From assembly GCA_043813875.1 (NCBI GenBank), contig JBDRKP010000056.1:1-25456 (forward strand): a stretch of 25,456 nucleotides of DNA, written 5' to 3'. Origin of the DNA: an archaeon. Lineage in GTDB: Archaea; EX4484-52; B79-G9. A program made the position numbers. Position 1 is the first letter of the stretch, and each line of letters starts with the position of its first letter. This document shows, piece by piece, positions 18,001-24,000 of this stretch.

Positions 18001-21000
18001 TAGGAGCATGATGCCTTCTCTTGCTCTAAAGGAAAAGGAAAGCGAGATGGTGAAGGTAAAGGAAAAGAAAGAGAATAAGAAATCTAATTCCTGCTGAGTC
18101 CGGTCTTTTTTATCTATGGTGGGCAGGGGAGGTAAGGGCTGACGTGTTTTTTGAATACGTCACAAGTGATGCATCCCTGCTTTTTGTTTCCGTTGTTCAG
18201 TATGGCTGCTTTTTTCAGCAATGTGTCGCAGTAGGTGCAGCTTTCGCAGTCTAATGCGCATTTTTGCATGGTGTTGAAGAAGTCAAGCCTGTCGAGGACT
18301 TTGTTGTTTATGAAGGTGAACATGCATTTCATGCCGGTCATGTCGAGAAGGTCTAAGAGGTCGCCGTTGTATTGCTCGTCTATGTAGGCTTTTAATGTGG
18401 TCTCTATCTGTGGTGTCGTGAATGTCCTTGTGGCCAGCTTGAAGTAATCAGTGAAGGGCTTGTAGTGCTTTATGTCTTCGGGCCTTATGAATGGTATCCT
18501 GAATACTTTTTTTGGGTCTTTTCTTATGACTGTTATGCAGGAGTGCGCAAGGAACTGGGCGTCGGGTGTCCTGTGGGCTATCGAGTTGAAATGCATAAGC
18601 CTAAAGGGGCAGTTGCTTAGGCAGCCCTCGTTCAGCAGGAGCTTGATTTTCAGGCCTGTGGCTTTCTTTATATTTTTTATGAGGTCCAGGTCACGGTTTA
18701 TGTCGCGGTCCAATGTCAGGACGTCTATACCCATGTCTTTCAGGTACAGGGCGTCCTCTATTTTTGAGGTGTAGCAGTTCACGGATGAGTGGAGTTCCAG
18801 TTCTGGGATAGTATTTTTAATTTCTGTTATGTAGAATGGGTTTGTTATGGCGGCGCTTTTCAGGCCGATTTTTGCGAGATTGTTTAGGTAATCGGTCACT
18901 TTTTTCATGCGGGCCGTGTTGCCGCATCTCTTGGCTTCGCATGTTGCGTTGAGAAGGATCTGCGAGTTGATGCCGTTCTTTTCGCAGGTCTTTATAACGG
19001 TCCGGATGTTTTCACGATAGTCTTTTTCTATGGGGCGGAACCTGCCTGTTGAAAGGTACTCGGGCGGTATCGGGAAATATAGGCAATCGACGCTGTCGCT
19101 GTAGGCTTCAAGGAGTTCCAGCATCAATAGGTCATTGTTGTAGCCAATTGAATATCTTGTCTTTTTTGCCATCAGTTTTATTTAGCTGCGATAAAAATTT
19201 ATATGAGGGCGTACAATTGTTAGTATCAGATATATTGGGATGTTGAGATTCATGGGCATACGCGATAAGATAAAGAAAATCAGGAAGTGCGAGATATTCA
19301 AGATCGCTGGAAATGAGAAAACAGGGGTTGTCAATAGCCTTGTATTGCTCGGGTCTATCGGTGCTCTTCTTGCCGTGGTTGAGCATGAGGTGGAGGCAGT
19401 CACATGCGATGCCAATAGCGAGATATCGGATACTGATTTAGAGCCTGTCGGACCTGTGATTGATGCAAGCCGGTGGAAAAATCACTGCTGGAACTGGTCT
19501 TGGTGCTGGAGCTGGGGATGGGGTTGGGATAATTCAAGCAGCAGTGAGTAACCCTTTCTGGTGATTGTCATAATGGAGCCGGTAAAGACTGAGCGGAATG
19601 ATGCGGCACATCAACTTAAATTAGACGGTATCGTCTATTTCTCTTTGGGACTTGCGTGTGACAATGCATGCCTTCATTGCGTGGCTGAACACCGCAATGT
19701 CGATACATGGAATTCAAGAGAGAATATGAATACCTGTGAAGTTGTTTCATATTTTGACAGGATAAGCGGGAATAAGAATCTTACGCTTGAGATTTCGGGT
19801 GGGGAGCCGACGATCAGAAATGATTTCCTATACCTGATGGAATACCTGTCCATCAATGCACCGTGGATCAAGAAGATATTGCTGACCAATGGAAGGTCTT
19901 TTTCTAATGCTGATTTCACGTCGAGGGCCGCACTTTATCCACCGGAGTGCAGCCTTGTGCCGCTGCACGCCCATGAACCGAAACTCCATGATATGATAAC
20001 AAGACGTGCCGGGAGTTTCAATGAGACTGTTCTTGGCATACGAAATATGTTCGAATATGGAATGATGGTAATCCCGAAGATCGTGGCGAACAGGCTGAAC
20101 TATAAGATACTGCCGGATTTTGTGGAGTTTGTGGCGCAGAATTTCCCGGAAGCAAAGACGGTCGGCATCGATACGATGGATGTCTCGGGGGCCGCTGAGA
20201 TGAACAAGGACAGGATAGCGGTCAAACACAGCACTGTTGCCCCATACATGGAGAAAGCGATGGATACGGCTGTAAAGTACGGGATGCATGTCAATGCCAT
20301 ATATATGCCTTTCTGCCTCGTGGGCGAGAAATACAGGCAGTATATATGGGAAGGCGCTTCGATTGTCATGTACAAGGACTCTCATGGTGAAACTGTGGAT
20401 ATCAGAGGAGAGCGCGGAGTCGTCGAGGCATGTGGAGAATGCAGGTACATAGGTAGATGTCCGGGTAGCTGGTTCACCTATTTCAAGGAGTTCGGGGCAG
20501 AGGAACTGAAGCCAGTCGTGTGATTTCTTATTTTTACTCTATTTTACGGATATTTAAAGTTTATACCAAAACAGGATGTTTATGGAGAGCCACATAGTAT
20601 CTCTGATAGATAAAGAGCATGAAAACCAGGATAATGGTCTTCTGCTAAACGAATATTTCCAGAAAAAACTGGGCAACGGCAGAATGCTTGTTGCGACCCG
20701 GCACGGCTCATGGTCTATCCTTTCACTTGAACAGTATGAGGCATTGCGGAGTGGAGAATTCGCCAAGGATAAAATACTTTGTCGCGAACTCAAGGAGAAA
20801 GGCATCATCCTTGATGAAAACTCTGTCCATAAGATTGTTGATGCGTTCAGGGAGAATTATCATTGTCTTGCCGATGCGCGACCTCTGTGTATCGTTTACC
20901 TGACCAACAGGTGCAACCTGAACTGCGAATACTGCCTTTCGGATACGAATGATATTGACGATGCAGATGACCTGTCTTATGAGATGATGGAGGATATTAT

Positions 21001-24000
21001 CAATTTCATCGCAAAGATGCCGCATGCTCACATAGCGCTCGAATTCCAGGGCGGCGAGACGCTCCTCTGCTTTGATATGCTGAAGAAATTCCTTCTGCGG
21101 TTCGATGAGAGGATGAAGGCTGCCGGAAAGGTCGTGGACTCGAAGGTCGTCGTGTCCAATCTTACGCTCATGAATGAGGAGATCGCTCTGTTCATCCTGA
21201 AGAACAATATCGGACTTTGCTCTTCTCTTGACGGGCCGAGGGAGCTTCATGATGCGAACAGGAAGTATCCTGACGGGCAGGGGTCTTATGATGCGGTCAT
21301 GAAGGGGATTGATTTTTTTGCAAAAATAGGGCGAAAGATTCCCTTAATGCCGACAATCACAGCGGAGTCTCTTAAGCTTGACCCGAAGGCGATTGTGGAT
21401 GAGTACAGGAAAGCCGGGCTTGATCATATTGTCCTTCGGCCGGTGTGTCCTATCGGGAGGGCGCGCAGCGGGTCGCTTTTGATGGAGCCGAAGGATTATT
21501 TTGAGTTCTGGAAGAAGGCTCTTGATTACATGATCGCTCTTTCTATGGACGGGAATGTGTTCTATGATAAGACTGTACAGGATATGCTGGTTGCGATATT
21601 TACGACCAGGAGGCAGAACATGTGCATGAGGCGGCCGTGCGGCGCCGGCATCAACCATTTCGCGTTCTATCTTGACGGCTCAATCTATGCATGCGATAAC
21701 GGGAAAAAGATGGATGCTTTTAAGCTCGGAAATGTTTGTGAGTCCAGTTATGAAGATGTCTTTCTGAATACATTGCAGCTTCGGGCAAATACAACTGAAT
21801 TCCAGCCGCTTTGCGATACGTGCGTGTATGGCGCTTTCTGCGGGTCGTGCATGTGCAAGTCTTATGCGAGGTCAGGAAAAGTGGTGCCTATGACTCCGAT
21901 GGATTTCGACTGCAAGATCAATAAGATGATGTTTGATCATATTTTCGATAAGATGGATGATCCAACATATCGGACTGTGTTTGAGATGTGGGTACGGCTG
22001 AAAGCATGATTGAAGCGTATTTTTTGAAGGTCATAGCATTCGCTTTGATACTCTGGGTTCTCGGATTGTTCGGGAGACAGTCAATCTTTTTGTATGTATT
22101 GTTCTCTTCTGTCTCTTTTTTTGTGAGGCCGGTCGAAGCTATGCCTGAATTCATGATATCTGCCATCTTTGTGTTTCTTTTTCTGTATGTGATATCCACT
22201 ACTGTCAGGAATTCTTTCAGGAGCGGTTTTTTGAGGTTTTCAAAGCATGCTCTTCTGCAATCCTACAGGAAAAGGAGCGTGGTCTATTCTGTGTTCGTTG
22301 TGTCTTTTCTTATGATGCTTGCTGGCATCGGCGACAGGACTCTGCTTTTTTTAGGGAGCTTTTTTGGGTTTCTTGCCCTCGGGCTTCTTTCCAAAAGCGT
22401 GAGCTTCGCAAGATATGACTGTTACGGGATAATCAATTATAGGAATGCTTTCATTGCTGCTCTTTTCTATGCAGCTTATCATTCCATGTACATGGAGATA
22501 TTTGTGGGCATGATCATCGGGATACTTTATCTTGCGCTTATTGTCATCTCTTCTCTTGTGTATGATACGTTCACTTTCGAGTGCCCTGTCGGGGCGCTTA
22601 AGGAGGGGATGGTGAGCGCGGATTATGTCGTGAAAAAAGACGGCAGGGTGTACAGGAAAGAGCTGAATAATGTCATCACGTTGCAGTCTTTTTTGAGGAG
22701 AAGGATAATGCTACGCGCAGAGGGTGAGGAGATTGTCATCAGTCCTCTTCGGGCGCTGTCAAAGAAGGATATTGATTTTTTGAAGAACATGAAAAAGGGC
22801 AGGGAGTTTGATTCTTTATGCGTGCAGAATACTGTGGATATGAGAGCCTTTGTCGTTGGGGGCATTATCCTTTCTACTGTTGTCTTTTATATTTACCCTT
22901 ATCTTGTCGTTTTTGTATAGGGCGCTGGTCTATTGTGGTCTATCGCGGGCGTATTGAGGCGCCTATAATGTCTTGAATGTATCGGATAATGCTATCGATG
23001 AGATGCTCTGGGGGTTTGTCAGTTCGATCTGATAATAATAATCTGTGGCTGGATCGAGGCCGATGATTGTCAGCTCATGATGTGCTGCCAAGATGGATAT
23101 TGGCTCGCTATCGCCGTACATGATTGTTTTGCCATATCTGATAACACCGGTTGTCGGAACGTCTGTGTCGAAGGTTATCTTTGCGTCATTGGTTCCAGGC
23201 TCTATTGTGACGGATCCGACGATATTCGGCATATCAGTTATCATTAGATTAACTGTTGCCTCGGCAGGGTTTCCTGTGTTGGGTGTGGCTACGGCCTTTA
23301 TCCTATACATGCCTGTGTCAGTCACGGTTATTGCGCCGGTATATGGCGATGATGAGCCCGGCGAGGCTATCGGAGGACCGTAGGTGCCTGTATCAGAGTC
23401 AAACACGAAGAATTCTACTGAGACTATGCCGGATGAATGGCGGGCGTCTACTGTCAATGTTACAGGGTTATCTACTGTTTCGCCGTCAAGCGGGGAGGTT
23501 ATGTTTATGAATGGATCTGATGTGTCTATACCGGCGATGAATGTGTATTCGGATGATGTGACTGTCTCTGTGCCGTCGCTCGATTCGACGATTATGTAGT
23601 AGTCCTGTTCCGCAATCAGGCCGCCGATTCCGATGCTGTGTGCAAGAAGCTCTGTGGGGTCGGTGATGTCCGTGTACGGGCCGCCGGCTGTCGTGCTGTA
23701 TTTCAGCGTCGAGTCTGAGAGCCTGTTTGTTGTCCATTGGATTGTTACGGATGTTCCTGAAATAGATGCGGTCGGGCCGGATGTTATCTCGAACGGGCCT
23801 GAAAGTGCAAGCGATGGGGGGATTGTACCGTAAGGATTGTTGCATGATGAGCCGTGAGTGTCGCAGAAATGGGTGGCACCGGGTGGGCCGCAGCAGTTCA
23901 TGTCGACGATGGGCACGGTGACATAGAATCTGAACTTGAGCTTTTGCCAGTTGTTTGCCTCTGGATTATATATCTTGTTCCTGTCGTCTGTTATAGTCAC

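Follow-up and report, generated by a model that had tools for sequence, protein, structure and literature searches.

A probable Trp-repeat branch of HXS-type peptide maturation in a six-gene cell-envelope module of a small-genome archaeon

The locus described here is probably a Trp-repeat branch of HXS-type peptide maturation, organised as a six-gene cell-envelope module. It lies in a window (the whole stretch of archaeal DNA that was analysed) of 25,456 nucleotides. The conserved genes encode an HxsD-like protein, a precursor peptide, an HxsC-like and an HxsB-like radical SAM enzyme, a membrane protein and a large surface protein of at least 830 aa (Table 1). Behind this reading stand the homologies found for all three maturation proteins, the switch of substrate, a separate clade of the enzyme, the conserved neighbourhood, and a pattern of charge and hydropathy. 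The ORFs of the precursor, the two enzymes and the membrane protein lie where the survey's finding had placed them. Its bounds for the unit, 19252..22920, were too narrow, as the HxsD-like gene and the surface-protein gene belong to the module, which runs from 17582 to 25455. The precursor gene is separated from hxsC by 9 nt and hxsC from hxsB by 52 nt, and hxsB overlaps the membrane-protein gene by 22 nt; the surface-protein gene is convergent with this operon. The order HxsD, precursor, HxsC, HxsB is repeated across related loci. Judging from its sequence, the A/T-rich element ahead of the precursor may be an archaeal promoter.

Table 1. Features of the Trp-repeat cassette in the window.
Feature	Position	Strand	Basis
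Trp-repeat cassette, whole conserved module	17582-25455		gene neighbourhood kept in relatives
HxsD-like small protein, 171 aa	17582..18097	+	TIGR03976, homologues, hhalign
U32-family protein, Cys-rich C-terminus	18114..19172	-	PF01136 E 2.6e-9, partial match
A/T-rich TATA-like element TTTATAT	19198..19204	+	~50 nt upstream of precursor start; read from sequence
Precursor peptide, 99 aa	19252..19551	+	ORF, alignment, charge/hydropathy
Trp-repeat core WKNHCWNWSWCWSWGWGW, residues 75-92	19474..19527	+	homologue alignment, enrichment statistic
HxsC-like radical SAM enzyme, 320 aa	19561..20523	+	TIGR03977 E 6e-42
HxsB-like radical SAM/SPASM enzyme, 477 aa	20576..22009	+	TIGR03978; Pfam Radical_SAM, SPASM
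Polytopic membrane protein, 310 aa, soluble Arc_PepC-like domain (residues 176-269)	21988..22920	+	PF06819
Large surface protein, at least 830 aa, Big_7/fn3-like domains	22963..25455	-	Pfam; N-terminus lost at contig end

Both radical SAM enzymes find their best NCBIfam match in the HXS families, below the curated cut-offs, as had been stated. The HxsC-like enzyme scores 143.5 bits against the HxsC family (cut-off 267.9), with HxsC4 (NF038332, E 3.8e-23) as the runner-up. Its CX3CX2C motif is formed by C33, C37 and C40, and in the alignment Cys 252, 291, 294 and 300 are also invariant. The match of the HxsB-like enzyme to the HxsB family has E 4.4e-96 and 322.4 bits (cut-off 370) and spans positions 7-466 of the 466 in the profile; no protein of the genome matches above that cut-off. 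Among plasmid proteins, the best matches of the two enzymes are annotated as hxsC (24-28% identity) and hxsB (27-29% identity, 91-97% coverage), respectively. In the tree, the HxsB proteins of the Trp type, that of the window included, form their own clade (18 rows, support 100/99); the other clade holds archaeal HxS-type and precursor-less HxsB together with 2 bacterial ones. Thus, the best and near full-length family matches, the annotated plasmid relatives and the separate clade bear out a divergent archaeal relative of HXS maturation, with Trp repeats replacing the HxS repeats of the substrate, though neither HxsB nor HxsC nor HxsD of the cassette reaches its NCBIfam equivalog cut-off. HxsB as such is already recorded in archaea, since NCBI and JGI name it in MAGs of Woesearchaeota, Diapherotrites and Aenigmatarchaeota.

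The 99-aa precursor ends, as described, in a repeat with 8 Trp in 18 residues, all of them encoded by TGG. Against the 0.82% Trp in the 20 other proteins of the window, this enrichment has a binomial P of ~8e-13. H-x-S motifs are absent from the 99 residues. The basic N-region (residues 1-25, ending in EKTG) is followed by a hydrophobic segment (26-43), the A-x-A-like EHEVEA (44-49), Cys52, an acidic linker and the Trp-repeat tail. Four residues, G25, C52, W75 and W80, never vary among 18 precursor homologues from several families of the phylum, and W92 is nearly invariant. The precursor indeed belongs to no family: NCBIfam gives no match to E 1 (HxsA, A2, A3 and A4 included), Pfam none to E 0.01, and neither finds a peptidoglycan-binding or any other domain. 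It is also rare, with 17 representatives in 1.84 billion proteins. Its position relative to hxsC and hxsB is constant and its leader region is conserved, with Trp tails that differ strongly from relative to relative. The HxS-type precursors of the same phylum match NCBIfam HxsA4/HxsA3, whereas the Trp-type ones match none; the leaders of the two types do align (hhalign probability 69.8%, E 4.1e-5, 44 columns).

It had been proposed that HxsD is missing and that the membrane protein stands in its stead. Neither part is borne out. The first ORF of the module matches the HxsD family (E 3.1e-9, 37.1 bits; cut-off 50), as do all 24 homologues taken from related loci, and its profile aligns with an annotated bacterial HxsD (hhalign probability 96%, E 4.7e-9, 87 columns). 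As HxsD is not missing, the membrane protein is not in its place. The conserved domain covers approximately residues 50-145 and is preceded by a non-conserved N-terminal extension. With regard to the HxsD motifs given in the available passages of PMC13128918, LYW is LYP here and LLNDYxLRE is loosely kept. No BLAST-level match of this protein was obtained in plasmids. Of the 37 loci, 27 have the gene, and in most related ones it immediately precedes the precursor; in L053 and L054, which are of the Trp type and have sufficient flank, no HxsD-like gene was found. In the window, the U32-like gene separates it from the precursor. Orthologues of the U32-like gene at 70% identity or more occur in 7 genomes (its own included), all beside this cassette subtype, and remoter homologues adjoin L059, L061 and L064, Hxs loci that lack a precursor. 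The U32-like protein is possibly a tailoring enzyme; its membership in the system is uncertain.

An HxsB homologue is present in 28 of the 42 genomes of the phylum, the number first given. The locus counts grew when they were redone with wider flanks: from 25 to 37 loci in all, from 11 to 20 for Trp-type precursors (18 if two contig pairs that are identical between bins G027 and G003 are counted once), from 3 to 6 for HxS-type precursors, and from 9 to 16 for homologues of the membrane protein, all 16 of the Trp type. One more locus has a Thr/Ser/Cys-rich precursor, and in 10 none was seen, of which 5 are truncated by a contig end. Within its clade the cassette is near-core (13 of 15 in f1, 6 of 7 in genus g1), and the tiny genomes G003, G012 and G014 each carry two cassettes with unlike Trp tails.

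The membrane protein was said to be without a family, which holds for NCBIfam and fails for Pfam, where it matches Arc_PepC (E 1.7e-9, 38.3 bits; gathering score 23.4) as the sole such protein of the genome. In 8 of 11 relatives the match is weak (E up to 0.01), and in one of those 8 it exceeds the gathering score. Arc_PepC is shared with the archaeal A24 prepilin and preflagellin peptidases of the FlaK and PibD type, from which the protein differs in having neither a Peptidase_A24 domain (the PF01478 match of the genome lies elsewhere) nor the conserved Asp pair. Peptidase_A24 enzymes use two catalytic Asp, one of them in GxGD. Among 9 homologues of the membrane protein no Asp is invariant and the AGIGD motif is not kept; BLASTP against the true A24 peptidase of the genome is not significant. 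An aspartic (A24 prepilin) peptidase is thus not credible. Pfam and NCBIfam reveal no transporter or protease signature, and the predicted structure is poor (pLDDT 61.8), with no fold match. The three f8 genomes have no detectable homologue.

Of 25 Trp-type loci, 18 have the surface protein next to them and 7 are truncated by contig ends, as against 0 of the 12 other Hxs loci; all 19 Trp-type genomes encode it, versus 4 of 23 others, counts that overstate independence because the genomes are related MAGs. The two envelope proteins remain paired even where their position relative to hxsDCB differs (L045/L046). In full-length relatives of the surface protein, the N-terminus is a basic stretch that leads through [GA] into a hydrophobic helix. 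By eye, we take these N-termini to be pilin-like (class III), and more loosely also that of the precursor, with EKTG before its hydrophobic helix.

Across the 18 precursors, the N-part has a charge of +2 to +10, the 17-residue hydrophobic window reaches 1.8-2.3 on the Kyte-Doolittle scale, an A-x-A-like motif stands just before the invariant Cys, and 17 have a C-part of net negative charge. Charge and hydropathy point to a signal-like N-terminus, and export and cleavage are judged by eye from hydropathy and motifs. The leader and the charge pattern would indicate maturation in the cytoplasm, followed by export that leaves the acidic Trp tail on the outer side.

From these features we infer the following account of the chemistry, of the successive steps with their cleavage, of the link to both envelope proteins and of the role in the cell. 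The precursor would be synthesised in the cytoplasm, where its extended basic N-region, in which EKTGVVN(S/G)L is conserved, may serve as the leader for the HxsD-like, HxsC-like and HxsB-like proteins. Cys, Trp and acidic residues, the cross-link partners in rSAM/SPASM systems, abound in the substrate. Both radical SAM enzymes would act on its C-terminal Trp/Cys/His-rich core, with intramolecular cross-links as the most likely products. The N-region and the hydrophobic segment would next function as an export signal, leaving the N-terminus inside and the C-terminus outside, and a cut would probably follow at the A-x-A site right before Cys52. The resulting acidic peptide of ~50 aa, with a rigid Trp-rich end, would be freed or exposed at the outer face of the membrane and may act there jointly with the membrane protein and the large surface protein. 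As for the role, virus exclusion at the envelope and contact at the cell surface or with a host are given roughly equal weight.

As far as the available passages of Li et al. 2026 (PMC13128918) and the families TIGR03976-03979 describe it, bacterial HXS (HxsA/B/C/D) shares with the cassette the HxsB and HxsC enzymes, the small HxsD and a C-terminal short-period repeat; for the cassette, an N-terminal export signal and an extracytoplasmic action like those of bacterial HXS are predicted. The cassette differs in its Trp-based repeats, in an acidic substrate of 99 aa in which no peptidoglycan-binding domain (E. coli/Klebsiella type) is recognised, in its gene order (D...A-C-B against D-B-C-A), in the two extra conserved genes, and in its chromosomal, housekeeping context in a small-genome archaeon. 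Another comparison is offered by the small HxS precursors HxsA4/HxsA3, which occur with HxsC4 in the same archaeal phylum (NF038313, NF038309, NF038332). They resemble the Trp-type precursor in architecture, having a basic N-region and a conserved acidic/Gly motif as well as a hydrophobic segment and an A-x-A-like site, and HxsD is adjacent. Unlike the Trp type, they carry an HxS-repeat core, the precursor is downstream of hxsB, their HxsB falls with bacterial HxsB, and no homologue of the membrane or surface protein stands alongside.

An archaeal anti-virus defence akin to bacterial HXS, in which the matured peptide stops viral genome entry outside the membrane, is possible and the less doubtful of the rival explanations. 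The predicted extracytoplasmic site of the peptide suits it, and so do the double cassettes and the variable Trp tails. Both of these are frequent in conflict systems. In addition, the only characterised relative, bacterial HXS, stops phage DNA entry from the periplasm, according to the portions available of PMC13128918, in which the words archaea and tryptophan (also Trp) are indeed absent. Bacterial HXS is plasmid-borne and patchy, as described there and as seen in the plasmid records, 378 of 634 of which are conjugative, whereas the cassette is near-core within its clade, with housekeeping genes as its neighbours in the window: ProRS, GlnA, GMP synthase, KsgA, TtuA, UppS and two geranylgeranyl reductases. 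PADLOC reports no defence system in the window, just a weak radical-SAM similarity to viperins. The bacterial model, as given there, depends on basic, DNA-binding HxS repeats, and the part predicted to be exported is acidic here, so the electrostatic model of DNA binding cannot carry over. The lack of a recognised peptidoglycan-binding domain and the low identity to bacterial HxsB also argue against this role. An anti-virus role would be drawn from distant homology, and the context lends it no support, given the housekeeping neighbours, the near-core distribution of the module and a tail that is acidic, not basic.

It is rather unlikely that the product is a secreted RiPP, a cross-linked Trp-rich peptide with membrane-active or antimicrobial action, for which the membrane protein would provide export or immunity, and the neighbouring surface protein would be unrelated. 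The layout is RiPP-like, with a short precursor, a leader, a variable core and an adjoining rSAM/SPASM enzyme, and Trp-rich peptides are often membrane-active; most of the membrane-active ones, however, are not strongly acidic, as this peptide is. The peptide maturases PapB (2.6e-40) and DynA (3.4e-32) follow HxsB among the NCBIfam matches, and anSME and CteB are the closest solved structures. With such cross-linkers (PapB ranthipeptides, DynA, QhpD, CteB, anSME and, from the part available of PMC13692751, archaeal CrpC) the enzyme shares the radical-SAM core and SPASM at E 1e-30 to 1e-40, scores far below its HxsB score, and HXS differs from them in requiring a second, non-SPASM rSAM (HxsC) and HxsD. 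Further, neither Pfam nor NCBIfam recognises a leader protease or ABC exporter of RiPP type in any protein of the cassette, and the linkage of the surface protein is too tight for an accidental neighbour. That there is no working unit, only a chance Trp-rich ORF near two unrelated radical-SAM genes, would fit the family matches below cut-off and is highly improbable, contradicted as it is by the invariant residues in 18 sequences, the constant position of the precursor and the Trp enrichment.

Going beyond the Trp-repeat branch of HXS-type maturation, a tentative and rather improbable proposal is that the six genes form a lineage-specific surface device. A mini-pilin-like peptide, membrane-anchored or secreted and with its Trp tail cross-linked by radical SAM chemistry, would be passed to a giant pilin-like adhesin, or assembled with it, by a catalytically dead relative of prepilin peptidases. 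At the envelope of a symbiotic archaeon with a small genome, the device would serve host contact or keep viruses out. If this were true, enzymes of the HxsB/HxsC type would perform a Trp-directed chemistry that is so far undescribed.

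The four open reading frames (ORFs) that the survey's finding had placed at 19252..22920 are all present on the + strand and tightly spaced; from the precursor on, they are separated by 9 nt and 52 nt, and the last two overlap by 22 nt. The survey had further reported that no HxsD was to be found. This part does not hold, as an HxsD-like ORF sits at 17582-18097 and is recognised by TIGR03976, under the cut-off (E 3.1e-9, 37.1 bits against 50). In the window, the U32-family gene on the opposite strand separates it from the operon; in most relatives, HxsD lies directly upstream of the precursor.

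Features of the Trp-repeat HXS cassette, its neighbours in the window and the fused HxsC genes of related loci (L0xx)
Feature	Position	Strand	Description
HxsD-like	17582-18097	+	ORF, 171 aa, TIGR03976 match
U32-family gene between HxsD-like and precursor	18114-19172	-	Cys-rich C-terminus
Trp-repeat precursor	19252-19551	+	ORF, 99 aa
HxsC-like	19561-20523	+	ORF, 320 aa
HxsB-like	20576-22009	+	ORF, 477 aa
Membrane protein	21988-22920	+	ORF, 310 aa
Surface protein	22963-25455	-	ORF, 830 aa, N-terminus lost at contig end
Fused HxsC tandem	L048:4180-6015		
Fused HxsC tandem	L052:391-2154		
Fused HxsC tandem	L053:7445-9211		
Fused HxsC tandem	L054:4292-6055		

A scan of the window for sigma-70 promoters and terminators was uninformative, the host being an archaeon. 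Three groundwater DNA sequencing runs contain part of the stretch, and no RNA run containing it was seen among the sequencing runs listed. The HxsD-like gene is immediately preceded by the genes of two geranylgeranyl-reductase paralogues in tandem and of a 60-aa 2x[4Fe-4S] ferredoxin (14615-17368, -); a geranylgeranyl reductase adjoins HxsD in locus L072 of genome G001 too. The window also encodes a prolyl-tRNA synthetase (3628-5769, -, 713 aa) with a B3_4 domain (PF03483, residues 71-206) N-terminal to the class II core.

The C-terminal end of the precursor, WKNHCWNWSWCWSWGWGW, has 8 Trp per 18 residues, every one encoded by TGG (binomial P ~8e-13 against 0.82% Trp in twenty other window proteins). 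No H-x-S motif occurs in the 99 residues, in agreement with the claim that Trp repeats replace the HxS repeats. In an alignment of 18 precursors, G25, C52, W75 and W80 are invariant and W92 nearly so. All follow one plan. The N-region is basic (net charge +2 to +10) and closes with EKTGV(V/I)N(S/G)L; after it come a hydrophobic segment (Kyte-Doolittle 1.8-2.3 in a 17-residue window), a motif of the A-x-A type, the invariant Cys and, past an acidic linker, the Trp tail. Beyond the hydrophobic segment, 17 of the 18 carry a net negative charge. The tails vary in register (WxW, HCWWDHxWW and NWSDW, for example), and many keep a W-x-[ND]-H-x-W start.

Against NCBIfam, no Trp-type precursor had a match, even at E up to 1, while precursors of the HxS type from the same phylum match HxsA3 and HxsA4, two of them passing the cut-off of the latter. 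Between the two types, the leaders show a modest alignment (hhalign probability 69.8%, E 4.1e-5, 44 columns). The family is rare in public data. A word-indexed search retrieved 18 proteins, and an exhaustive HMM search of 1.84 billion proteins gave 17 representatives (clusters) at E <=0.001. Scans with nine closer precursor sequences returned ten loci from the genome contig collection, all of them MAG records of this lineage, and three short loci from the metagenome contigs; as these scans used a single, narrow peptide pattern, they do not show absence elsewhere. A different precursor-like ORF of 124 aa is found in genome G007 (L070:1326-1700, -), just upstream of an HxsD-like gene, with a leader of the HxsA3/A4 type, a core of Thr/Ser/Cys runs (CCICTTATTATTSTT...) and a weak HxsA3 match (E 2.4e-4).

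The maturases are relatives of those of the HXS system. As the survey had stated, the top NCBIfam matches of the 320-aa and 477-aa proteins are HxsC (TIGR03977, E 6e-42, 143.5 bits, cut-off 267.9) and HxsB (TIGR03978, E 4.4e-96, 322.4 bits, cut-off 370), both under the cut-off; the HxsB match spans profile positions 7-466 of 466. Both enzymes carry a CX3CX2C motif, accompanied by a SPASM domain in the HxsB-like enzyme and by four other invariant Cys in the HxsC-like one. The closest solved structures to the former are anSME and CteB. Identity to the bacterial proteins is 27-29% for HxsB and 24-28% for HxsC. The HxsD assignment is strengthened by its relatives, since all 24 HxsD-like homologues from related loci match TIGR03976 (best E 7.9e-15), and a comparison of their profile with an annotated bacterial HxsD gave a probability of 96% (E 4.7e-9, 87 columns), with the AAYRFID stretch common to both. 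A tblastn search of plasmids with the HxsD-like protein found nothing at E up to 0.01, and a complex prediction of the HxsC-like protein with HxsD-like residues 45-150 scored 0.00, which counts neither way.

The phylum comprises 42 species genomes of 0.5-2.2 Mb, whose public records are labelled Candidatus Nanohalarchaeota, Nanohaloarchaea or Aenigmatarchaeota MAGs; 28 of them have an HxsB homologue, the figure already given by the survey. Thirty-seven loci around these homologues were taken with up to 13 kb, and the window proteins were mapped onto them by tblastn and homologue-built profiles. A Trp-type precursor is present in 20 loci (18 if the identical contig pairs of G027 and G003 are counted once), an HxS-repeat precursor in six and a Thr/Ser/Cys-rich one in one. 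None was seen in the remaining ten, five of which are cut by contig ends and five of which form a distinct clade with flank present. HxsD-like genes occur in 27 of the 37, and the order of the Trp type is HxsD, precursor, HxsC, HxsB. The identical cassettes (C64 and C63 of G027, C9 and C36 of G003) lie in bins assigned to different families; probably one bin is mixed, or the two have a common assembly source.

In an ML tree of HxsB (29 rows, 27 of them different, with a midpoint root only and just two bacterial sequences), a branch with support 100/99 separates all 18 Trp-type rows from the rest, namely the archaeal HxS-type rows, those without a precursor and both bacterial HxsB. In a collection of 5.8 billion proteins, the window HxsB has about 29 relatives at >=40% identity, called, where named, 'radical SAM protein', 'SPASM domain-containing protein' or 'hypothetical protein'. 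Under 37% identity appear proteins named HxsB by NCBI or JGI in MAGs of Woesearchaeota, Diapherotrites and Aenigmatarchaeota. Thus, archaeal HxsB is already in annotation, but the Trp-type clade is not recognised as such.

Several loci depart from this arrangement. In four Trp-type loci, two HxsC-like halves are fused in tandem into one HxsC (587-611 aa), and L051 and L055 have two separate HxsC genes each. No HxsD-like gene was seen near the fused genes of L053 and L054, where flank is present; L052 is cut upstream. The HxsD-like proteins L051:3078-3743 and L055:3796-4497 bear a Cys-rich C-terminal extension matching the Fe-S region of the acetyl-CoA decarbonylase/synthase gamma subunit (NF003195, best E 4.9e-7). 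A third kind of locus is seen in family f5 (L059, L061, L064 and L065, from genomes G028, G023, G025 and G027), comprising an HxsD-like gene, an HxsC-like gene, a second small HxsD-like gene (~85 aa), HxsB, a second HxsC on the opposite strand and a U32-family gene. These four show no repeat precursor, with flank present, and their HxsB forms its own clade (support 100/100). As for the U32 family, it was found in 14 of the 42 genomes; orthologues of the window protein (>=70% identity) occur in seven, its own included, all beside this cassette subtype, and the protein may be a tailoring enzyme.

The survey had left both the precursor and the membrane protein without a family, which stands for the former alone. 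Residues 176-269 of the membrane protein match Pfam PF06819 (Arc_PepC, the C-terminal domain of archaeal A24 peptidases) above the gathering score (E 1.7e-9), with no second match in the genome. Even so, the protein is not credible as a peptidase: it lacks a Peptidase_A24 domain, and no Asp is invariant among nine homologues. The idea of a leader peptidase was dropped because the conserved Asp is missing, and that of AGIGD as a GxGD catalytic motif because AGIGD is not conserved. The true A24 peptidase is encoded elsewhere in the genome, and BLASTP detected no significant similarity between the two. An AlphaFold2 model built from nine sequences has a mean pLDDT of 61.8; Foldseek against the PDB gave no match at E <=0.001, the best Z of a wide VIA-align search (7.1) is in the noise range for helical models, and a profile search of PDB sequences returned nothing relevant. 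The gene is present in 16 of the 37 loci, every one of the Trp type. Among the nine Trp-type loci lacking it, five are cut by contig ends, one belongs to a genome with the gene on another contig, and in the three of family f8 the membrane protein encoded at that position is unrelated or escaped detection as a homologue.

A second partner, the surface protein with Big_7/fn3-like domains, is convergent with the operon. Its homologues adjoin 18 of 25 Trp-type loci, the other seven being cut on that side, and none was found beside the 12 other Hxs loci. In L045 and L046, the membrane and surface genes lie on the opposite side of the hxs genes, still together. The protein is found in 19 of 19 genomes with a Trp-type cassette as against 4 of 23 without, counts that are suggestive rather than statistical because the genomes are kin and mostly incomplete; two of the four exceptions (G002 and G007) belong to the same genus and have fragmented assemblies. 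In 12 homologues with an intact N-terminus, a basic stretch ending in [GA] precedes about 20 hydrophobic residues, an arrangement that by eye resembles archaeal class III (pilin-type) signals. For the N-terminal 560 aa, the ESM Atlas gave no usable match, and the Atlas model itself is poor.

How might these parts work together? The positive-inside charge pattern and the A-x-A site of the precursor indicate that its Trp tail would be exported to the outside. Radical-SAM enzymes are cytoplasmic, and modification would therefore precede export. The best reading of this pattern and order is that HxsD, HxsC and HxsB modify the precursor first, guided by its leader; the product would then be exported, with probable signal cleavage, and the matured peptide would act on the outside of the membrane together with both co-conserved envelope proteins. 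Cross-linking of the Trp core would be the most likely outcome, given the many Trp, Cys, His and Asp residues of the core and the thioether or carbon-carbon cross-links made by the nearest non-Hxs families to the enzymes in NCBIfam. For bacterial HxsA, PMC13128918 likewise proposes modification and then export; there, a +8 Da change could be localised no further than to one SHRSS motif, and the reaction could not be reconstituted.

As to the role, defence is no likelier than a surface or contact function exerted jointly with the pilin-like surface protein. By homology with bacterial HXS, the cassette may protect its carrier against viruses, and the predicted extracytoplasmic location and the presence of two cassettes with different tails in several genomes fit such protection. 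Yet the window consists of housekeeping genes, with no PADLOC system found in it, and the cassette is near-core in its clade, whereas the bacterial system is plasmid-borne and patchy (plasmid matches to HxsB; PMC13128918). The model of PMC13128918 also requires basic repeats binding DNA, and the exported part here is acidic. A secreted antimicrobial peptide, though possible, accords less well with the acidity and with the close link to the surface protein.

Compared with bacterial HXS, the Trp-type cassette pairs the same maturation trio, HxsB, HxsC and HxsD, with a substrate that has Trp instead of His-x-Ser and is acidic instead of basic. The class of substrate is new; the cassette also differs in its separate enzyme clade and in two additional conserved partner genes. 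In full-text literature, subscription journals aside, HXS function was treated by the 2026 paper and its preprint alone, and neither archaeal HXS nor a Trp-repeat variant came up; as the survey had noted, 'archaea' and 'tryptophan' (as well as 'Trp') are absent from the main text of PMC13128918. The Trp-type branch, with an enzyme clade of its own for each subtype, provides a comparison set for recognition by HxsB and HxsC and for their products. It shows, too, that the HXS machinery is bound neither to a single effector design nor to a DNA-binding mechanism. For these small-genome archaea, the sequences point to a conserved envelope module that is rare in public data.
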